Positions 3,250 through 58,790 of a DNA stretch of 63,860 nucleotides are shown piece by piece. Location: the IMG/VR virus record IMGVR_UViG_3300046366_000135, positions 1 to 63,860 of that record, one strand, 5' to 3'. This DNA is from a virus (taxonomy: Duplodnaviria > Caudoviricetes). How positions within the stretch are numbered: position 1 is the stretch's first letter; each line of letters opens with the position of its first letter. Both the position numbers and the translations under genes were made by a program. Under the pieces are notes generated by a model. That model ran no database searches and was not told where the DNA came from. It saw only the letters and a program-made list of their open reading frames with translations.

Positions 3250-4075
3250 TTGCGGTTACTTTTTTACGATCCCTATATCTTTGAGTCTTTTTTCTATTGG
3301 ATGAACGCTCACACTCAATAGAACCACATCGTTTGCTTTTTGCCAAAGCATTTGTAGAGAACTGTTTTGAGCACTCCTCACAAATCACTAATCTAAACTC
3401 CCTATTCTTCACCCTTTCTGAGGCTCTCTTTTTAAATTCCTCACATTGGGAGGGGTGCCTACCCTCTGATGCCAATTGCTTATTCCTTTGACGAGTTTTC
3501 TCTATCCCATCAGCGGTCTGAAAGAATAAACTCCCTTCCTCCGCCCTCCTCTTACTCGCTCTACTAGCTCTTTTAGACTGAGCTTCTTTAAACTCTGTTG
3601 TCTGTGAGGGGTGTAGTCCCTGAGAGGCTAGTAATTTACCCCTTATACTAGAAGAGTGTCTTGCTTCTGGGCTTTGAAGATAATGATTACCCTCAGCAAC
3701 TAAATTCTTCTGAACCTCACTTATTAGAGCTTTTTGTGAGGGTCTTTTTGATGGATTGTTATCCCCAGACATTAACTGAAACCCCAAAGTACCCTCTTCA
3801 GCCCTTTTACTTGAATGTAATGATATGTGATCAAAACAATCCAAACAAGCTAAATTAGAGATTTCGTTATTTTTGTTGTTACCATCAATATGATGAATAT
3901 GAAAGCCTTTTGGTACTTTGACATTATGAAATTCCCATACCAGTACATGAACTTTACCAAAGTACCCTTTATCTATTTCAGGGTAGTACTTACCCCTCCA
4001 CACTTGACATAATCTACCCTTACCATCTGTGAAAATAGTAAAATCGGGAAGATCAGTTTTCAATTTTGCTGGCAT
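3242..4075 (-). CDS. HNH homing endonuclease with internal repeats and C-terminal Zn ribbon
   Basis: HVLVWE..HIHHIDGNNKNNEISNL..H; five (E/Q)G-x-H/L-x-x-Q repeats; CEEC...C..C. Confidence 0.9.
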   Translation of the reverse strand: MPAKLKTDLPDFTIFTDGKGRLCQVWRGKYYPEIDKGYFGKVHVLVWEFHNVKVPKGFHIHHIDGNNKNNEISNLACLDCFDHISLHSSKRAEEGTLGFQLMSGDNNPSKRPSQKALISEVQKNLVAEGNHYLQSPEARHSSSIRGKLLASQGLHPSQTTEFKEAQSKRASRASKRRAEEGSLFFQTADGIEKTRQRNKQLASEGRHPSQCEEFKKRASERVKNREFRLVICEECSKQFSTNALAKSKRCGSIECERSSNRKKTQRYRDRKKVTAND

Positions 4076-49272: not shown

Positions 49273-49459
49273 TTTCGTTTGTTTCGATTAACCAATTCAT
49301 CCATTGTACATAAACATTTGTAGCGATACAAGTTGTACATTGGACAGCTTTATGAGTCTGCAAAAGTGCCTTACCTTCCTGAAGTCTGCCATTAGCATAA
49401 TGTCCCATTAACTCTTTTAAGGCAGACTCATTTAATATAATTAGAGATAAATCCATCAC
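49196..49459 (-). CDS. hypothetical protein
   Basis: CTTC motif; coupled ORF. Confidence 0.5.
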   Translation of the reverse strand: MMDLSLIILNESALKELMGHYANGRLQEGKALLQTHKAVQCTTCIATNVYVQWMNWLIETNENARRFYQEVFVHVQQTDKIEYRDSQ

Positions 49460-52203
49460 ACAAATTTTGATTTAATTACTGCTGGACAGCCGTCACTGAA
49501 TGTTACTTCTCTCCTCACTTCAAGTGGATAGTAGATAAGTTGATTTGTACGGTCAGAATCAATAAATACCAAAATACTTGAGCAAGAACTTCCAAAAGCA
49601 ATAACTTTTATGGCTTTGCTCAGAGTTCCTATAGGCGTAGCCCGTGTAGCTACGATGTAGCTGGTTCCCAAAGAAACTAGAGTACTTACTGGGATTACAA
49701 GAGAACTAGTCACAACCCCCCAAAAATCTACTGCTTGATTCAGTGAATTATAGAGAGTTACTGATCCAAGGTAATCTGTACAATCACTATTGTCAGTAAT
49801 TGTAAAATCAGAGCCAGAACATAAATAAGTAAAGTCTAAATACTCTCGTACATCACACCCACAAACCGGAGCTGAGTAAACAGTCCAAGAACCTCCAACA
49901 CGTCTCCAAGATACTACATCAGTGCTGATTTGAGAAGTAATTCCAGCTAATCTTTCTACAATAAGACAACTATCATTTAATGTAGCTTCAAAGTTAGGGT
50001 CATTGTTGCAATTATATACAACATCACAGGCATCTGTATTTAAAGGAACAGGCCGGAAAGTGACATCAGCTTTTGTGCCAGTGTAATCAGTAATCTCAGT
50101 TAACCTACCTACGTAATGTTTGTTACCAATTAATACATTCAACCAGCGACGAAAATTCAACTGATCAAATTCAATAGGATTGATAATCAATTGGAAATCA
50201 ATTTCTAAGTTGGCTATAAGCTCTAGTATGAATAATTCCCAGAATTGAGAAGTAACATCATTAGTTCGATCCCCATAAATTAAATGGATTTCTGGGACTT
50301 CAGCAGTCTCATCAGTTCCTATACTTTCATTACTTACTTGATAAGCATAAGGTATAAGAGTCTCAGTGATACCTTTAAATTTCCAGTTAGCTACTACATC
50401 AACCCCACCACTAGTTTTTCCCCTGTATTGAGAAACATACCCTAAAGCATACAAAATTCTAGGAGTGAGTTTAGTGCTTTCTTTGTGATCAGAATTATCC
50501 CAACAAGCCGGGATATTTACAGCACATTCAATGTTTGGTGTGTATACTGCCTGAAGGTCTTTTGACAAATAATTGTCAGACGCTTCAAAGAAAGGATTGT
50601 AATTGTTACTTGTGGCCTCTTCGTACTTATCCCCAAAGTCCAGCTTTTTAGCAAAGATTGGATTATCTCCATCGTAATTTTGACTTTTAACCCAGTCATC
50701 GTCAGGAGCTTTAAACCCGATTTGTAGATAGCGGTTCTCAACAAGTCTACGATAAGTTTCTTTTGTTGAGGTACAATCATACTCAGCGTTAGCTGTCTGC
50801 CCATTAAAAAATGGTTCAGGCTGTTCCCCTGATTGTAATGTAAGCTTATCTGGGTGCAATAACCATACAGTTCTAGTAGATTCATCAGAAATCAACCTAC
50901 CTTGAATAAGATGTATAACCCCAGATAGTAATTTATCAAATTGATATTCACAATTAACCCAGGCTTTTAGGATTAATTGCATATCTGGTTGAAATTTTAC
51001 AGTTTTAGGCTTCACTTTAATACCCCCATTACTAATGGTGTGTTCTCCATCACCCGTATAGTTATCAAAGAATAGATTAAAACTAATTGCGTAGTTAGGC
51101 TGAGTTATGTTTAATACCCTAGTTTTCCATCTTATAGTTTTCTTTTCACCGACTGCTATAAAATTGGGGGAAATATCGACAACCCCTCCCGGCAGAAATC
51201 CAGTAGAGTCTGTGGCAGAACAGAATATCCTGAATAATACAGTATCTCCACTACCTGAAGTGTCTATGTCAAACTCAACCTCAAACTCATATTCCCCGGA
51301 CATTCCTTTAAAATAATAAAATACATAGGAACCATTGGGAAAGGGAACTCCTAATGTGTTTATGTAATAAAATCCATTGTCAAAGCCTCTAAATGAATTG
51401 TCAATGAATTGCAACTCATGTTTGAATGTATCTACAACCCAAGGGGGGTTAGGGTAAGCAGTAGGGTCAGCGAATGCGCTATCTCTATAAGTTTCAGTTT
51501 GATAAACATTTACTTTAAATCCATCAAGGCTATTATCCCCAGCTAAATCTACCAGAATATAGGTGATCAATCTACGTCCCCAATCAGTTTCTAAAATTGG
51601 CGAACGAAATTTATAACCAATAGAGCAAAATCCTTTCTGTAGGATGTAAAGAATATGAAACCAAGGCCGAAAATCGGCTTCATGTGCCCCTCCCGGAGTA
51701 GTTAATACATCCCCGTCCCATACAGCAGAAGTACCAGACCAATTTCCATAGTTTATAAGAGGAAAATAGAGTCCAGAATCTCCATCATTATATTTGGGTT
51801 TAACCCAGTTATTCCTTAAATTTGTCTCAGTGAGGTGGAAATTACCCAAGGCAATTTGACACAACTTGACTTTACGAATTTGGATAGCCCAAAAGCTTGC
51901 ATCCATCACAAGCTCTACTTCCATACCTCTTTTAGTTCTATTGTAAACTCTTAAATAAGTTTGAGGTAAAGGAACTCCATCCTGCCAAGCTTGCACAAAA
52001 GCAAAGTTATCTTTTAATGCCCATTCGTTTTTCTCTGTGTTTATCAAGAAAAATCCCAACACACCTTCAGCAGATACTCGATCTAGCTCAGCCTGATCAG
52101 CTTTCTTGCTCCTTTTGAAATCAGGGCAAAAATCCAGAATTAGCCTACCATCAGTGAGATAGTGATCTGGGGTATTTACCGGAACGTATTGAAGTATAAT
52201 CAT
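49456..52203 (-). CDS. tail tip / baseplate hub protein
   Basis: Second gene after tape measure; YFPLINYG motif; 915 aa. Confidence 0.7.
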   Translation of the reverse strand: MIILQYVPVNTPDHYLTDGRLILDFCPDFKRSKKADQAELDRVSAEGVLGFFLINTEKNEWALKDNFAFVQAWQDGVPLPQTYLRVYNRTKRGMEVELVMDASFWAIQIRKVKLCQIALGNFHLTETNLRNNWVKPKYNDGDSGLYFPLINYGNWSGTSAVWDGDVLTTPGGAHEADFRPWFHILYILQKGFCSIGYKFRSPILETDWGRRLITYILVDLAGDNSLDGFKVNVYQTETYRDSAFADPTAYPNPPWVVDTFKHELQFIDNSFRGFDNGFYYINTLGVPFPNGSYVFYYFKGMSGEYEFEVEFDIDTSGSGDTVLFRIFCSATDSTGFLPGGVVDISPNFIAVGEKKTIRWKTRVLNITQPNYAISFNLFFDNYTGDGEHTISNGGIKVKPKTVKFQPDMQLILKAWVNCEYQFDKLLSGVIHLIQGRLISDESTRTVWLLHPDKLTLQSGEQPEPFFNGQTANAEYDCTSTKETYRRLVENRYLQIGFKAPDDDWVKSQNYDGDNPIFAKKLDFGDKYEEATSNNYNPFFEASDNYLSKDLQAVYTPNIECAVNIPACWDNSDHKESTKLTPRILYALGYVSQYRGKTSGGVDVVANWKFKGITETLIPYAYQVSNESIGTDETAEVPEIHLIYGDRTNDVTSQFWELFILELIANLEIDFQLIINPIEFDQLNFRRWLNVLIGNKHYVGRLTEITDYTGTKADVTFRPVPLNTDACDVVYNCNNDPNFEATLNDSCLIVERLAGITSQISTDVVSWRRVGGSWTVYSAPVCGCDVREYLDFTYLCSGSDFTITDNSDCTDYLGSVTLYNSLNQAVDFWGVVTSSLVIPVSTLVSLGTSYIVATRATPIGTLSKAIKVIAFGSSCSSILVFIDSDRTNQLIYYPLEVRREVTFSDGCPAVIKSKFV

Positions 52204-53588
52204 TTGTCGAAACGTAGATTAATTCTATAAAGTCTATCTTTTACATAGAAGTTTGTTGAGCCAGGTCGTAGGAATACCTCTTTGAATTGGCCGTACTCAT
52301 AAATATAGTGTTTTGGTGAGTTCAGAAAAACTCCCATACTACGTTTAAATTCTTCTAGGTTATTTCCAGTAGTTGATACAATGAAATTTTCTTTAAGCTC
52401 AAGCCTAGCTTTACGATTTTTACAAGTATCGCATTCAACAGCTACTTCAAGAGTTTCATGTTCATCTACCCACTCAGCCTCATCCAAAGCCTCAAAAATC
52501 ATTTGACTCCATCCACCATCCATGTACCAAATAGGAAAGCATTTACAACCAACACAATTCTTAATAACTGGGAAAGTTTCACTCAATACCTCATCGTTTC
52601 CGTCAATATTTCCAATTACTTGTACTTCCATTCTCACAGCGTCAGATGGCCAGAGTATAGTTTTACCAATAGGTATTTGATAAACACCTGTATTGGATAA
52701 GGTAAAAGGTCTTACTTGTGCTGTAAATCCTCCCCCGGCATCGTAAAAAGTGTATTGAACAAACAAGTCAGTTACTTCAGTAGCCCCAAAATCCAATATG
52801 ATCCATAAAGACTCATAAGTGTCATCACAAATCTTAATAGGTCTTTCCCTTCTAGTTAAAAACTCCACATTCTCAGTCCCCCAATCAACAAAAGAGCCTT
52901 GTACGATACTGAAGATGTCGGTATTTTCAAATCTGTTAAAAGCAGTACCACAAGGAATAGCTTTTTGACTGTCACCATACCGCATAAACGATGGTAGAAA
53001 AGAAGCCTGATCAAACACAGCAGTATTCCCGGTTACTGGGAGCGATGGCACTAGGTCAAGCTTTAGCTCAAAGCATTGATTCTGAGCTATACCCCCATTG
53101 TACAACATTGGAATATTGTACAACGATCCATAAGGGAGGTTGCTCGTAAAAAACTGATAGTGAAATCTATACCCATCAGGAGCATCAGAATCACTACCTG
53201 CATTTGAGCTTACAGTAGGAGGAAATGACAAATCAGATACATCGAATAGCCAATTAGAGTCAAAACCTACATTGTAAGCTTCCAGAAGTACTTGGGTTGT
53301 TGCTATAACTCTAGCATTTGCTCTAGTAAAGAATTCAGGGTTACTATTTAATGCTTCTGCTAAGCTTTGTGCATTAGTAGCTGCTAAATTTGAAGTTAAA
53401 TCACAGTCAGCCCCAACTTCCAGTTTAACACCAGCAATAGTCAACATCTCCCCAAAGACATTAGGCTCTAAGTTCTCGAATATAATTAACGCTGAAGGTC
53501 TTACAGCACTAAAATCATAAGCAAAACAAACTTTAGGGCATGTCTTAGACCCTACATATAGATCAGGTTGGCTGATTAATTCGATCAT
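52200..53588 (-). CDS. distal tail-like protein
   Basis: Directly follows the tape measure gene once the IS is removed; GGWSQMIF and FLNSP motifs. Confidence 0.6.
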   Translation of the reverse strand: MIELISQPDLYVGSKTCPKVCFAYDFSAVRPSALIIFENLEPNVFGEMLTIAGVKLEVGADCDLTSNLAATNAQSLAEALNSNPEFFTRANARVIATTQVLLEAYNVGFDSNWLFDVSDLSFPPTVSSNAGSDSDAPDGYRFHYQFFTSNLPYGSLYNIPMLYNGGIAQNQCFELKLDLVPSLPVTGNTAVFDQASFLPSFMRYGDSQKAIPCGTAFNRFENTDIFSIVQGSFVDWGTENVEFLTRRERPIKICDDTYESLWIILDFGATEVTDLFVQYTFYDAGGGFTAQVRPFTLSNTGVYQIPIGKTILWPSDAVRMEVQVIGNIDGNDEVLSETFPVIKNCVGCKCFPIWYMDGGWSQMIFEALDEAEWVDEHETLEVAVECDTCKNRKARLELKENFIVSTTGNNLEEFKRSMGVFLNSPKHYIYEYGQFKEVFLRPGSTNFYVKDRLYRINLRFDK

Positions 53589-54786
53589 ATTAGAGTTACT
53601 TTTGGTAAAATTAACAAATTTATTAAAAACGAAACAAAAAGTTTTGCTATTTTAAATTTATTTGTTAATTTTACAAGATGAAATTGATTTTGAAAATAAA
53701 ACTTAATCCAACCACTGATCAAAGTAAGTTGCTCTATAGCACAATTATAGAGACGAACTTGGCATGCAATGCTATTTCTCAAGACGGATGGGATAATGAA
53801 ATATTCAAACAATTCAAGTTGCATCATCTTTGTTATTATAAGATCAAAAAATCTTTTAATCTCACAAGCCAGATAGTTGTGAGGGCAATTAGTAAAGTTT
53901 CTGACGCTTATAAAGTAAATAAAACTAAACTTGCAAAATTTAAGGAGTTGGGAAGCATTTGCTATGATAGTAGAGTGCTTAAATACAAAAGTGATGCTAT
54001 TGTAGATATTTGGACTGTAGGTGGCAGACAAAAAATAAGGTTTAGTTACCATAATAAAGGGTACTTCCCTTACATAAAGGGGGAGGCTGATTTGGTCTAT
54101 AAAAAAGGAAAGTTTTATCTTTTTCAAACTATTGAGTTTCCCGAACCACCCATTGAATCTGTACAAGAATTTATAGGGGTTGATCTTGGACTTACAGACA
54201 TTGCAGTAACTTCTGATGGAATTAAACATTCCGCAGATCGGATCAACAACTACAGAGAAAAAAGGCAAAATATTCGTAGTTCTATTCAACGCAAAGGCAC
54301 AAAAGGAGCTAAAAAACTCTTGAAACGGCTTTCTGGCAGAGAAAGCACTACTGCAACAATAATTAACCATACTATTTCTAAATCCATTGTGGAATCTGCT
54401 AAAAATCAAAACAAGGGAATCTCTATTGAGGACTTGACCAACATTAGAACTACTTCCAAGCGTAGGAATAGAAAATTTAGAACTAAGCTTGGGCGTTGGT
54501 CTTTCTATCAGTTGCGTTCCTTCTTGGAGTACAAATCCAGACTTAGTGGAGTTAGGTTTGTGGTTGTAAATCCTGCTTATACTTCTCAAACTTGTTCTTC
54601 TTGCTATTATATTGGGACAAGAACTAATAAATCTTTTAAGTGCAAAAATTGTGGAAACAATATGGATGCGGATGCTAACGCATCGCTCAATATTGCTACA
54701 CTTGGGGCTGTTATAAACCAGCCTGAAAAATCGGAAATTTATAGCTGTGCTGTTCATTTCTAGGTTAAAGTCTTTAGACAGTTTAT
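53589..54786 (+). mobile_element. IS200/IS605-family tnpB-only element (IS1341-like)
   Basis: tnpB opposite to the operon; left-end 15-bp IR at 53605-53619 / 53660-53674; right end GTC-TTTA-GAC-AGTTTAT; excision restores an ATGA overlap. Confidence 0.85.
53678..54763 (+). CDS. tnpB: TnpB RNA-guided endonuclease
   Basis: RuvC I GVDLG, II IEDL, III DADANAS; PAYTSQTCSSC..CKNC zinc finger. Confidence 0.96.
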   Translation: MKLILKIKLNPTTDQSKLLYSTIIETNLACNAISQDGWDNEIFKQFKLHHLCYYKIKKSFNLTSQIVVRAISKVSDAYKVNKTKLAKFKELGSICYDSRVLKYKSDAIVDIWTVGGRQKIRFSYHNKGYFPYIKGEADLVYKKGKFYLFQTIEFPEPPIESVQEFIGVDLGLTDIAVTSDGIKHSADRINNYREKRQNIRSSIQRKGTKGAKKLLKRLSGRESTTATIINHTISKSIVESAKNQNKGISIEDLTNIRTTSKRRNRKFRTKLGRWSFYQLRSFLEYKSRLSGVRFVVVNPAYTSQTCSSCYYIGTRTNKSFKCKNCGNNMDADANASLNIATLGAVINQPEKSEIYSCAVHF

Positions 54787-57700
54787 CCGGTTATAGTTTG
54801 TAAGTTTTTACGTCTCGCAGCCTCTAAAGCAGCCTCTCTATATCCTTCAACGATGGCATCAGATACAGAAGAACTTACTTCATCAGCTACAATCGTAGCA
54901 AATCTATCAATTTGGCTGTCCTCTAAGGTCAGTTTATATACTGTAGTTCTAGCAGAACCAATACTATCATTCTGAGATGCTGGAAGAACAAAACCTCCTA
55001 CAGCATAGGCAGCGTAATTAGGTGATCCTTTTTTAGTTCTCAAAGACTCTGCCTGAGCAGCCAAAGAAGCCCCAGCAGGAGTATCCAAAACATGTTTAGG
55101 GATTACATACTCATCTTCATGCACAACTCCGGCTACTCTAAAACCAGTATGATCACGTTGACCTGTAGCAGTAGTATAACCACCGACAGCATATGATCTA
55201 GCCCGGATAGCTGAGGTTTGCAAAGCATACTGACCTGTTAAGAAAGCAAGTTGGATGCCTTTGTAGATGGCATCGAATGGTTGCTTAATCACAGAAGCAG
55301 CAGTCAGGATGTTAATGATACCTTGAGCGTAGCTAATGGCAGCCTGGGCTAATTCAATTTTCTTGTTCTTCTCAAATTGCTCTCTTTTCAGAGCATCAAT
55401 CTTACTAGCTTTCTCTTTTTCCAACCGCTCTACAACTTCTTTGTTGCCTCTAGCGGCTTCAATCTCTTTGTCGTAGTATTTCTCAAGGCTCTTAATCCTT
55501 TCATCGAACTGAACGTTGATTAACTCATTGAGAGAATCACCTAGCCCACTAATTTGAGATAGGGTCAGATCGACAAACGTCAGAATATTCTGAGTCTTAG
55601 CATCCAAAGCAAAAACGTCATTATCAGCCTCAAGTTGGCCTAACTGTTGTAGTTTATCATAGTATTGCCTCTGTAAAATTAACCGTTGTTCTAAGGACAG
55701 CTTGGTATTAGATAGTTGAGTTTCAAGGATTTTTATCTCACCCTCAAGCTCTAACCTTTCTACATTTTTTTGATACTCTTCGTAAGATTTACTTTTAGTC
55801 TGAAGTACCTTTCTATCAGTATCAATTTGAATTTTAGCAATTGCCTCAGCTTCGGTAATTGCTGAGCTAATTCCCCCCAACTTAGCCCTTTCTGACTGAA
55901 GTTGTTTGTCAATATCCAAAAACTCCTTACTACCCTCTTTATAGAGTTGCTTTCTAGCTTCAAGGGTTTGGATTTCAGCAGTAATAGCAATAGCTTTCTT
56001 AGTCTCAGCTAAGACGCGCTCATTAGTTATGGTATCCTCAGCATTTTGATCAGCTAAATCTTTAGCAGTTTTGATACTGTCAATCAAAGGCTGTACGTCA
56101 GTTTCTAATAACGCAGTAAACGAACTATTAGAAGCAGCTCTTTGGAGACGCTTGATAGCATCCTCAGCTAACTTCAAATCCTTCTCGGCCTTATCTAAAT
56201 TACCAACAATTTTATTGATTGCTTCAGGCTTCGCTGACTCAAGTTCTTTTTTAAGACTGGATACTTTTTGTTGATAAAACTCAACACTACCAGCAGCCCC
56301 TCGTACAGCCAAGTCCAAAGAATCTAATGTATCTTGCCATTCTTTTTCAGCAGCATTTATTTTGAAAGTAATATCATAGTACTCAGCAAGAAGGTCTGCA
56401 TAAGGTTTACCTTTTACAATTGATTCTTGGATAGCATTTTTTAGTTCAGTCTGTCTTTTAGTTAGTTTCTCTAACTCACTAGCAGCATCCTTATCTCCTT
56501 TAGTTCCATACTGGAACGAAGCTCTCCTACGAAGGTTATCCAAGTCAAATTTGTCAAAAGACAAGACATCTTTGGGAGCTAGTTTTTTCTCCAAAGATTT
56601 TCTAGCCTCTTCAGCAGATTTTTCCAGAGCTTTATTGTCAAGCTTTAGGTTTTTGTTTATAGTTTTACCGACTCCGGCACTAAAAATACCTAGACCATCA
56701 AGCTGTTTTTTGTTTTTTTCAAGATACTGATCATTCTGAATATTACGTTTGGCAATTTCAGTAGCATTATCCTTTGTGATGTTTTGCTGAGTCTTTTTGT
56801 TAAATTGTTCCATTAATTTCTCCCCAAGTACAAAGTTAGCAACATAAGCTACTGGGTTAAATATAGCTAGTAATTTTTTACCTAGATCAGCAGCAAACTC
56901 AAAGACCTTACGAAGTAATTTTGCAAATTCAGAAGTTGAAGTATAGGCATAGTAAATTGCAGATACTAAAGCCCCAACTGCTACAATAGCTATTCCAATA
57001 GGGTTAGCAGTAATGGCTGCATTCCAAGCCCATTGAACAGCAGTTATAAGTCTAGTAATTCCAGTCAATTTAGAAATATTAGCAATCCATTTACCAATAG
57101 CTACACCTGCATTATAAGCGGTTGCTTTAGAATTAAAAACGATAGCCACAGTAAAAGCAGCAATAATCGGGATTAATGCACCCACGATGGCTTTTACTTC
57201 ATTAAACTTAGCAACAGCCTCTTCCTCGCCTTGAACTAAACGAGCAAAAAACTGAACAATGTCAGCTATTCCTTTAACAAAAGCAGCTATTGGCCCGCTC
57301 TGGGTACTAAATATTGCAATTCCCAGAGTTTCAGTAGCCCCCGTCAATTCGTCAAAGGCACCTTTAAGGTCTTTGCGCATTGCTTCAGCAGTAGCTTTGG
57401 AACTGCCCTCAGCATTATCTAACTCAGCGATTAAGTCAACGAGTTTATCTTCTTGTTTAGCCAGAGCGATAGCAACAACAGAAGCATCTTTTCCAAACAA
57501 GGCGTTAGCAACTGCTAGTTTATTCTCAGCATTATTGATAAGATCAAAGGCTTCTTGCAAACTTCTGCCAGAGTTAGCAGTTTCAATAAAGATGTTGCGT
57601 AATGAAGTTCCAGCAGTAGACGCATCAATACTTTCATCTTTAAGAATAGACAACAAACCCGCAGTTGTTTTTAAATCAACACCCACAGCACTGGCTGCTG

Positions 57701-58790
57701 GCCCAACTATACCAATAGCTGTGCCAAAACTTTGTACATCCAGAGCCCCTGAATTAAATGCTTTAGCTAAAATATCTCCGGCTAAAGCAGCATCTTCAGC
57801 TTTCAATTGGAAGATATTCAAAACACCCCCAATAGTTTCTGCTACTTTAGCTAAATCCTCCCCAGAAGTTGTGGCAATATCTGTACTTACGGCTAAAAGA
57901 CTAGTAATCTCTGTTGCAGTTAAGCCTAATTTACCATAAGCAATGGCTAATGCACCAATTTCTTGTGAAGTAAACTCAGAACTAGCCCCAACTTTAAGAA
58001 TTTCATCCTTCAGAATAGTAAATTCCTCTGGGGTAGCTTGAGTGACGGCCCTAATTGTAGACAACTGACGACTAAAATTGATCGTATTATTCAAAGCAGT
58101 CTTGATTGCTGTATCTAGTAGGCCCACAGCAGCGGTAATACCACCAGTGGCAATACCAAAAGTTAGAATATCGGCCACAGAACCAATAGCCGATCTGTAA
58201 TTACCCACATTTCGTTGGTAAAGCCCTAACTTTTTGTCTAAATCTTGTAGTCTTGTAGCTAAAACATTAGCCTGAGAGGCAATTTGAGTACCTACAGGGC
58301 TATTCCTTACATCCTCACTAAGATTTTTGTACTCATTACGTAGTTTGACTAACTCAGCAGACATAGCCCGGTAAGAGCCAATAGGGAATTGTTGTTTTTG
58401 GAGAGTTCCTTTTAATTCCCCATCAATTTTTGTAAGTTCTTGACGAAGTTTTGATATATTTTTGAGTAAATTTGCACCTACATCAGAATCTCGATCTTCT
58501 TTAACTAGTGTTTGGTACTGTTCTATTAGGTTTTTTAATTCTTGTTTTATAGTATTATAACTTTTCTTTATTGTGTCAGTAGCATCAACATTTTCTCTTT
58601 TAAATTGGGAGGTTAGCCCAATAAGAAAATTAAGGGTTTGTTTTAACGGCTCTAGCCCTTCTTTAGAATCACCCAAAGCAGCTATAGCACTACGAGTATC
58701 TATCAGTGCTTCGTTTAAACTTTGAAGGGTATTTAGAACTACTTTACCATTTGGTAAAGTTATCTCTAAACTAATTACTTTTGCGGCCAT
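54783..58790 (-). CDS. tail tape measure protein
   Basis: 1335 aa helical; RNVGNY, TP901-like core (STAGTSLRN), ANPIG, C-terminal YAVGGYT..GVVHEDEYVIP. Confidence 0.93.
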   Translation of the reverse strand: MAAKVISLEITLPNGKVVLNTLQSLNEALIDTRSAIAALGDSKEGLEPLKQTLNFLIGLTSQFKRENVDATDTIKKSYNTIKQELKNLIEQYQTLVKEDRDSDVGANLLKNISKLRQELTKIDGELKGTLQKQQFPIGSYRAMSAELVKLRNEYKNLSEDVRNSPVGTQIASQANVLATRLQDLDKKLGLYQRNVGNYRSAIGSVADILTFGIATGGITAAVGLLDTAIKTALNNTINFSRQLSTIRAVTQATPEEFTILKDEILKVGASSEFTSQEIGALAIAYGKLGLTATEITSLLAVSTDIATTSGEDLAKVAETIGGVLNIFQLKAEDAALAGDILAKAFNSGALDVQSFGTAIGIVGPAASAVGVDLKTTAGLLSILKDESIDASTAGTSLRNIFIETANSGRSLQEAFDLINNAENKLAVANALFGKDASVVAIALAKQEDKLVDLIAELDNAEGSSKATAEAMRKDLKGAFDELTGATETLGIAIFSTQSGPIAAFVKGIADIVQFFARLVQGEEEAVAKFNEVKAIVGALIPIIAAFTVAIVFNSKATAYNAGVAIGKWIANISKLTGITRLITAVQWAWNAAITANPIGIAIVAVGALVSAIYYAYTSTSEFAKLLRKVFEFAADLGKKLLAIFNPVAYVANFVLGEKLMEQFNKKTQQNITKDNATEIAKRNIQNDQYLEKNKKQLDGLGIFSAGVGKTINKNLKLDNKALEKSAEEARKSLEKKLAPKDVLSFDKFDLDNLRRRASFQYGTKGDKDAASELEKLTKRQTELKNAIQESIVKGKPYADLLAEYYDITFKINAAEKEWQDTLDSLDLAVRGAAGSVEFYQQKVSSLKKELESAKPEAINKIVGNLDKAEKDLKLAEDAIKRLQRAASNSSFTALLETDVQPLIDSIKTAKDLADQNAEDTITNERVLAETKKAIAITAEIQTLEARKQLYKEGSKEFLDIDKQLQSERAKLGGISSAITEAEAIAKIQIDTDRKVLQTKSKSYEEYQKNVERLELEGEIKILETQLSNTKLSLEQRLILQRQYYDKLQQLGQLEADNDVFALDAKTQNILTFVDLTLSQISGLGDSLNELINVQFDERIKSLEKYYDKEIEAARGNKEVVERLEKEKASKIDALKREQFEKNKKIELAQAAISYAQGIINILTAASVIKQPFDAIYKGIQLAFLTGQYALQTSAIRARSYAVGGYTTATGQRDHTGFRVAGVVHEDEYVIPKHVLDTPAGASLAAQAESLRTKKGSPNYAAYAVGGFVLPASQNDSIGSARTTVYKLTLEDSQIDRFATIVADEVSSSVSDAIVEGYREAALEAARRKNLQTITG

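Follow-up and report, generated by a model that had tools for sequence, protein, structure and literature searches.

A tnpB element at a stop/start overlap between tail genes

The IMG/VR virus record IMGVR_UViG_3300046366_000135, a 63,860-bp stretch of DNA with 38% GC and an estimated completeness of 85% that we analysed whole and call the window, carries a small element between two genes of its tail region. By its sequence the element is a non-autonomous, tnpB-only insertion sequence of the IS200/IS605 type, lying on the plus strand at the point where a minus-strand tape-measure gene ends and the next minus-strand gene begins. Its tnpB gene is also open on the opposite strand, as a single open reading frame (ORF) that stops on the start codon of that next gene. 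The locus contains the following features.

53585..53588, plus strand: TCAT, the transposon-adjacent motif (TAM), read directly; the minus strand reads ATGA
53589..54786, plus strand: tnpB-only IS200/IS605-type element, 1198 bp, from direct reading and comparison of its left and right ends with those of relatives
53589..53677, plus strand: left end (LE), 89 nt, from alignment to relatives, fold and a self inverted match
53678..54763, plus strand: tnpB, 361 aa; Pfam Cas12f1-like_TNB (PF07282), 3e-23; NCBIfam guided_TnpB (NF040570), 182.7 bits against a cut-off of 100
53585..54757, minus strand: antisense ORF, 390 codons, codon-aligned with tnpB, from the ORF list, with its ATG at 54757
54783..58790, minus strand: tape-measure gene, 1335 aa; Pfam PhageMin_Tail, 6e-26; 15 PHROG tape-measure families, the best at 6.5e-55
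52200..53588, minus strand: next tail-region gene, 462 aa, with no family match and called a tail gene from its position only

Read on the minus strand, the tape-measure ORF ends ..ACC GGA TAA, with a TAA (54783-54785) drawn from the last bases of the element, and the 462-aa ORF starts ATG ATC GAA at the CAT of TCAT. Removal of 53589-54786 in silico gives ACC GGA TGA overlapping this ATG ATC GAA. Neither tail protein changes, because the downstream ATG is kept by the TAM and the terminus of the right end (RE) puts a TAA in the stop position of the upstream gene. The 3' terminus of the element is ..AGTTTAT (54780-54786), its last four bases being TTAT (54783-54786), and CCGGTTATAG follows from 54787; AT stands at both 53587-53588 and 54785-54786, so the boundary can slide by 2 nt with an identical joined product.

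A previous reading of this DNA from its letters alone (the sequence-only reading) had described TCAT, element and CCGGTTATAG in this order, placed the element inside an ATGA overlap of a kind used elsewhere in the phage, and held that the terminal TTAT supplies a replacement TAA that leaves both proteins intact. Direct reading of the junction bears this out: the deletion recreates the overlap, 12 of the 58 pairs of successive minus-strand ORFs, listed mechanically, overlap by 4 nt (10 ATGA and 2 GTGA), and every factual statement proved correct. Its structural inferences are also supported by the comparisons below, but it overlooked the full-length antisense ORF, a feature that alters the explanation of how the junction stays functional.

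The RuvC motifs of the TnpB protein, GVDLG (D169), IEDL (E251) and DADANAS (D332), and its zinc-finger CxxC..CxxC cysteines (C306, C309, C322 and C325) align to solved Cas12f and TnpB chains, the closest structures being 9nzq (Cas12f, 6e-23), TnpB 9nzp (2e-22) and ISDra2 TnpB 8exa (9e-10). The three RuvC acidic residues are thus intact, as had been proposed, and the claim that tnpA is absent also holds, since a search of the 63.9-kb record with PF01797 found no Y1 (HUH) transposase TnpA; for this reason we regard the element as non-autonomous. Self-comparison of the record revealed no second copy of it.

A reverse frame kept open across the lineage

The antisense ORF opens 25 nt after the tape-measure TAA with an ATG that is the complement of the conserved His360 codon, crosses tnpB and the 89-nt LE in full, and closes with a TGA formed by the TCA of the TAM. 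Within the TAM's ATGA, this TGA overlaps the start codon of the 462-aa gene; it ends the antisense ORF here and in the empty site would end the tape-measure gene. The frame is open stop to stop from 54790. TTA and CTA account for none of the 26 leucine codons of tnpB and TCA for none of its 34 serine codons, whereas in the phage's own ORFs they make up 38.7% of leucine and 21.5% of serine codons; from the phage's codon usage we calculate the chance of finding none of the three in tnpB at about 8e-10. Terminator-like sites showed no excess within the element.

A search with the single protein returned 2 viral relatives, and a search with an alignment of three proteins returned 94 viral loci, of which 80 were kept, and 23 genome loci. 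Most relatives are 55-68% identical to the window TnpB. Bacteroidota metagenome-assembled genomes (MAGs) are the source of 13 of the 23 genome loci, judged by record titles, and the lineage lives mainly in phage genomes, probably with Bacteroidota as hosts. No cultured phage was found to carry this clade, the best tblastn match being Rhodothermus phage RM378 at 38% identity.

We surveyed stop codons in the first 1050 nt of 50 representatives chosen from 89 genes, at most 90% identical to one another in amino acid sequence. The antisense frame is free of stops in 41 of the 48 bacterial or viral representatives, which are 42-68% identical to the window protein, whereas the four other alternative frames carry 7-59 each. 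Six representatives (L018, L040, L052, L083, L093 and L097) carry 1-3 antisense stops and one (L071) carries 28; the counts for the two archaeal outgroups are 19 and 23. In most representatives the first antisense ATG is the complement of the C-terminal histidine codon, a CAC codon giving antisense GTG instead. At the other end, the antisense stop is exactly the TCA of the TCAT that adjoins the LE in 33 of 67 left contexts, and the frame is in register with the TAM's TCA in 40 of the 48 contexts that bear TCAT, over many LE lengths. An open antisense frame with a defined start and end is a trait of the whole lineage: the reverse ORF is uninterrupted and codon-aligned, is kept in diverged relatives and is absent from the outgroups, properties that are among those by which narnavirus genes are called ambigrammatic.

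Two deviating cases deserve mention in their own right. In L044 and L045 the antisense frame is open for 572 codons; it passes through the LE and extends into the flank to a point about 600 nt from the tnpB start. L071 (IMGVR_UViG_3300035208_009193) lies on a 675-kb contig of 26% GC, with 54% identity to the window protein, the same RE terminus (GCGGTAGTTTAT) and flanks oriented (-,+); its lineage may have left the niche antisense to operons and lost the open-frame trait.

Element ends that mimic stop and start codons

Nearly all relatives share an RE terminus of ..GGTAGTTTAY followed by unrelated sequence, and the window's RE junction, GACAGTTTAT/CCGG (the slash marks the junction here and below), agrees with the family terminus AGTTTAY. 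TCAT stands directly before the LE in 48 of 67 distinct left contexts, in agreement with the sequence-only reading, which had included TCAT in the TAM. The preceding base is T in 38 of these 48 and A in 4, the ATCAT of the window being the minority form, and by this comparison the family TAM is about TTCAT. The family LE consensus is AAnATTGGAGC; the window LE begins ATTAGAG.

In 40 of 60 contexts, outgroups counted, both flanks run antisense to tnpB; in 6 both share its orientation. Of the 46 distinct insertions whose two ends could be assigned, 27 have an ORF of at least 50 codons that begins at the TAM's CAT, 18 have an upstream ORF of this minimum length whose stop is the TAA of the RE, and 13, the window among them, have both (the RE ends of L031 and L070 are misplaced, the last motif match having been taken). 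The lineage thus inserts 3' of (T)TCAT, which is ATGA(A) on the other strand, at the stop/start overlap or start codon of opposite-strand genes, and its ends mimic what they interrupt: TCAT retains the ATG, and TTTAY, read in reverse as RTAAA, places a TAA at the same codon.

Comparing all flanks against one another, we found three related types of phage contig, distinguished by which of two sites, some 780 bp from each other, carry the element; their flanks are 96-99.8% identical among the four loci concerned. L019 is occupied at site A only, L023 and L024 at site B only, and L021 at both.

Site A, empty (L023, L024): ..TTTCAT/AAGGCTCTGAG, the flank beginning AAGGCTC
Site A, occupied (L019, L021): ..CCTTCAT/AATAAATAA..element..GATAGTTTAT/AAAGCTCTCAA
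Site A, occupied, right junction: ..TAGTTTAT/AAAGCTC
Site B, empty (L019): ACGTTCAT/ATGGCGTTATCC
Site B, occupied (L023, L021): ACGTTCAT/AAATATTGG..element..AGTCATTTTAT/ATGGCGTTATCC

At both sites the insertion lies exactly 3' of TTCAT, without target duplication and with an RE ending in TTTAT. On the strand opposite tnpB, each site is an ATGA overlap of two ORFs, 267 and 533 or more codons long at site A and 256 and 257 codons long at site B; with the element in place, the upstream ORF keeps its stop position and ends on the TAA that the RE provides. The window element shares its end sequences with these relatives and so probably also inserted 3' of the motif without target duplication.

Over the tnpB core the site-A and site-B copies share about 96% identity, but their terminal sequence is unrelated over about 55 nt of LE and 30-35 nt of RE (L019:2376-2437 and 3620-3656 against L023:2371-2432 and 3620-3649); hairpins are present in copy B and absent from copy A. 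This pattern suggests that the core was homogenised by gene conversion between the copies of two-copy genomes such as L021.

All or part of the stretch is present in 24 freshwater and wastewater metagenome runs, of which we inspected four as Logan contigs, chosen for holding 46-63% of its words and therefore possibly element-free. These contigs contain the occupied form only, and no joint that skips the element, in assemblies from which rare variants are dropped so that absence is not implied. Contigs of runs X11, X12 and X13 bridge the right junction; at the left junction, contigs of X11 and X13 reach 12 and 27 nt into the element, against a bridging threshold of 31. In X11, the first base of the element (53589) is where one contig starts, a second contig stops at 53600, and no joint was reported; this assembly break at the left boundary might mean that one side has another context as well.

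Further observations concern the LE and its surroundings in relatives. Most relatives (L006, L014, L017 and L019 among them) have a TAnnTTTG-like motif (for example TATATTTG) 5-10 nt ahead of the tnpB start, and the window has TAATTTTA at the corresponding position (53666-53673), just before the tnpB ATG. The motif resembles the -7 promoter element of the Bacteroides type, as would be expected if the host belonged to the Bacteroidota. At the LE boundary of L006 (190-240), the unit TTATGGTCAT stands in tandem and doubles the TCAT motif, perhaps as a remnant of several rounds of insertion or excision. In L003 (2879-2915; same contig as L013), the TAM's ATG opens a 9-codon mini-ORF (ATG AAT GTG .. 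ATA TGA) whose stop forms another ATGA overlap, this time with the start of the real downstream gene, making a relay of two stop/start overlaps. Downstream of the window's tape-measure gene, the 462-aa and 915-aa ORFs (49456-53588) have no Pfam or PHROG match at E <=0.001.

A conserved 3' RNA and missing terminal hairpins

For RNA structure we aligned the last 175 nt of 38 of the 50 representatives, the others being outgroups or having no assignable RE end. RNAalifold recovered three helices of 18 pairs, 15 of them with compensatory changes, and by this covariation a structured 3' RNA (the putative omega-RNA) is conserved in the family. Rfam searched over 53000-55400 gave no family at E <=1 other than a chance lncRNA match. 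The predicted parts in the window, all on the plus strand, are these.

54612..54786: predicted omega-RNA scaffold, 3' part, from the alignment and RNAalifold covariation
54706-54710 with 54719-54723: helix 1, GGCTG with CAGCC, kept in the window
54728-54732 with 54763-54767: helix 2, AAATC with GGTTA, four of five pairs kept in the window
RE hairpin: helix 3, reduced in the window copy to GTC/GAC
54787..54802: predicted guide-matching flank CCGGTTATAGTTTGTA, placed by the published TnpB model

By analogy with that model, the omega-RNA would end at 54786 and carry CCGGTTATAGTTTGTA as its guide; this flank is unique within the window at up to 3 mismatches. The RE of the window folds as DNA at -0.9 kcal/mol (z +0.7), compared with -9.5 kcal/mol (z -4.4) for L014, and the family LE hairpin CCCA..TGGG is absent, although the window LE has a 15-bp imperfect palindrome of its own at 53605-53674 (-15.4 kcal/mol, z -3.9). 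L005 and the site-A copy of L019 and L021 are likewise poor in hairpins. Because the subterminal hairpins, including the last omega-RNA helix, have been lost, the activity of the window copy is uncertain.

Discussion

The reading that we consider to explain these observations best, with a probability of about 0.6 for the whole, is that a tnpB element sits at ATGA overlaps of opposite-strand genes and carries an open reverse frame that restores their coupling across the insert. An insertion at such a site would part the downstream ATG from arriving ribosomes and add 1.2 kb of untranslated RNA to the operon. During late transcription of the tail operon, ribosomes would instead translate the antisense frame across the 1.2-kb insert, which would avoid polarity and melt the structure of the LE, and termination of that frame on ATGA would recreate termination-reinitiation coupling onto the downstream tail gene; what would count is the transit of ribosomes and not a protein product. 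We place the odds that the reverse frame has this function, restoring ribosome delivery and preventing polarity, at even or a little better.

A second part of the proposal concerns the nuclease. If TnpB acts with an omega-RNA ending at 54786, it would cut genomes free of the insertion sequence (IS) at TCAT followed by CCGGTTATAGTTTGTA, recombination would copy the element in, and self would be spared through the TTTAT that stands in place of the TAM. By analogy with known TnpB systems, a homing or competition function of the window copy is plausible. A bolder extension, in which this is a "translationally transparent" transposon whose TAM evolved as the reverse complement of ATGA(A), whose ends imitate that overlap, whose nuclease gene is composed to let ribosomes of the invaded operon pass through on the other strand and resume at the next gene, and whose hairpin-less derivatives, the window copy among them, have ceased to transpose and spread only by RNA-guided homing between co-infecting phages, at an essential tail-gene junction, we hold tentatively and would sooner bet against than for.

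Several observations weigh against this reading. Concerning the reverse frame, 19 of the 67 left contexts have no TCAT near the antisense stop, the frame ending inside the LE or continuing, and in 9 of the 33 cases with an exact stop the CAT starts no long ORF. The 6 co-oriented contexts have an open frame as well, which a mobile lineage would be expected to show but which lends no positive support; in most relatives a stable hairpin precedes the antisense ATG, at a distance of 45-55 nt between this ATG and the RE end; and none of the listed runs that hold the stretch is recorded as RNA. Concerning homing, the window has ATCAT at its TAM and not the common TTCAT, and it lacks the subterminal hairpins that typify IS200/IS605 elements and that the family retains. 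Y1 genes scored above cut-off in 3 of the 5 MAGs that hold relatives, and none of the 7 loci inspected carries the family RE motif that would mark a partner tnpA with matching ends. The sequence-only reading had reconstructed the empty junction of this phage, and although true empty ATGA sites exist in other phages, a distant-mode blastn search of 51600-56800 against 50,697 phage records recovered no IS-free relative of the window phage; the 26-nt right flank as an exact pattern had no match in viral or metagenome contigs, and the 462-aa protein had no relative in viral contigs, with 57 pattern matches and none confirmed in metagenome contigs.

Could the open frame arise without any selection for translation, as an artefact of codon usage or composition? 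The odds are vanishingly small: most members have a GC content of 32-46% and yet the other four frames are full of stops, a relative with 54% amino acid identity (L071) has 28 stops in the same frame, and the phage's own genes freely use the three avoided codons (GC-rich relatives such as L098 and RM378 are uninformative in this test). If the frame is selected, it might be for its product, which would make tnpB a true overlapping gene, and the persistence of the frame, of its start opposite the conserved histidine and of its usual end at 42-68% TnpB identity would fit such a function. Several results speak against it. At residues shared between relatives, the fraction with the same codon is 0.726 when the proteins are 90% identical and only 0.465 when they are 55% identical, where pooled usage predicts 0.449, so that codon sharing drops to expectation with divergence; in 97 pairs with below 60% sense identity, antisense amino acid identity is 0.343, nearly equal to the 0.320 obtained with random synonymous codons. 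The product has no match in Pfam, PHROG or NCBIfam, and its composition (S, F, I and L together 42%, C 3.6%) is that of a typical antisense read-out. By these comparisons the antisense frame apparently codes for no conserved protein, and we find a functional product highly improbable.

Translation might also matter only in shielding the operon transcript from Rho termination or decay, with no specific reinitiation. The same avoidance of codons in the window and its relatives would be expected, and the contexts noted above in which the frame is open with no gene start at its end would follow naturally; but protection of this kind has no need of a stop exactly on the TAM's TCA, nor of the register kept with it across varied LE lengths, and we consider it unlikely as the whole explanation. 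A different objection is that the window copy is an immobile relic, its TnpB and omega-RNA no longer cutting, that persists because it is harmless at the junction. The unstable RE, the missing family LE hairpin, the lack of tnpA in the record and the finding of only the occupied form in the Logan contigs of four runs all fit a relic, whereas the full-length tnpB, with its catalytic and zinc residues, and the retention of omega-RNA helices 1 and 2 do not, and the hairpin-poor copy at site A is itself polymorphic among contigs with nearly identical flanks. We regard a relic as somewhat unlikely, though to be taken seriously.

The element resembles known IS200/IS605 members (ISDra2, IS608 and the ISGst of G. 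stearothermophilus), as described by Karvelis 2021 (PMC8612924) and Meers 2023 (10.1101/2023.03.14.532601), in its RuvC triad and zinc finger, in inserting 3' of a short AT-rich motif without target duplication, in an RE terminus that resembles the TAM, in a predicted structured RNA over the tnpB 3' end and RE, and in a donor joint that would be composed of TAM and RE flank. In the published model, TnpB cuts this joint and recombination restores the element (Meers 2023, 10.1101/2023.03.14.532601). In contrast to these elements, there is no tnpA in the window, the present lineage lies mostly antisense in phage operons at ATGA overlaps or start codons, the whole of its tnpB is readable on the opposite strand, and the window copy has lost both subterminal hairpins. 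Its RuvC and zinc-finger core aligns with Cas12f over residues 130-340, but the window TnpB is transposon-borne, smaller (361 aa) and without a CRISPR array. TldR proteins (10.1101/2023.11.30.569447) are likewise phage-borne TnpB relatives with a guide RNA; since D169, E251 and D332 are kept, the window TnpB does not belong to that nuclease-dead kind, which has lost RuvC catalytic residues.

Phage homing endonuclease genes, group I introns and inteins are selfish elements that last within essential phage genes because they are phenotypically silent, and they spread through cleavage of the empty allele during co-infection. Silence in the present lineage would come from end mimicry and ribosome read-through and not from splicing, and targeting is proposed to be RNA-guided.

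The closest parallel to the reverse frame lies in narnaviruses, in which a codon-aligned reverse ORF extends over nearly the whole gene through avoidance of UUA, CUA and UCA, this aligned frame being the only one that synonymous changes can clear (DeRisi 2019, PMC6884476); the reverse product is apparently no functional protein (Wilkinson 2021, PMC8155312), and translation of the reverse frame is reportedly required for persistence (Retallack 2021, PMC8316113). The reverse ORF of tnpB likewise arises from avoidance of TTA, CTA and TCA. Narnaviruses, however, are RNA viruses of eukaryotes whose reverse ORF has no explained purpose, whereas the present case is a DNA transposon in bacteriophages and its reverse frame has ends tied to its neighbours, beginning after the upstream stop and ending on the downstream ATG. 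A full-text literature search that covered main texts and part of the papers using the term "ambigrammatic" found no report of such a frame in tnpB, in transposons or in phages.

The more surprising result is thus one of the lineage and not of the single copy: a nuclease gene that is readable both ways, with ends and a target that mimic an ATGA overlap. We know of no other ambigrammatic gene outside RNA viruses, and this one would be the first; it comes with a concrete proposed purpose, which could inform the unexplained reverse ORF of narnaviruses. Automated gene calling may report the antisense frame as a hypothetical protein. For applications, the clade appears to offer compact TnpBs of about 360 aa with a (T)TCAT TAM, as judged from sequence comparison, and the design suggests a route to non-polar insertion cassettes. 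If our account of the reverse frame is true, selfish DNA can persist in dense, coupled and essential phage operons at almost no cost and without splicing.

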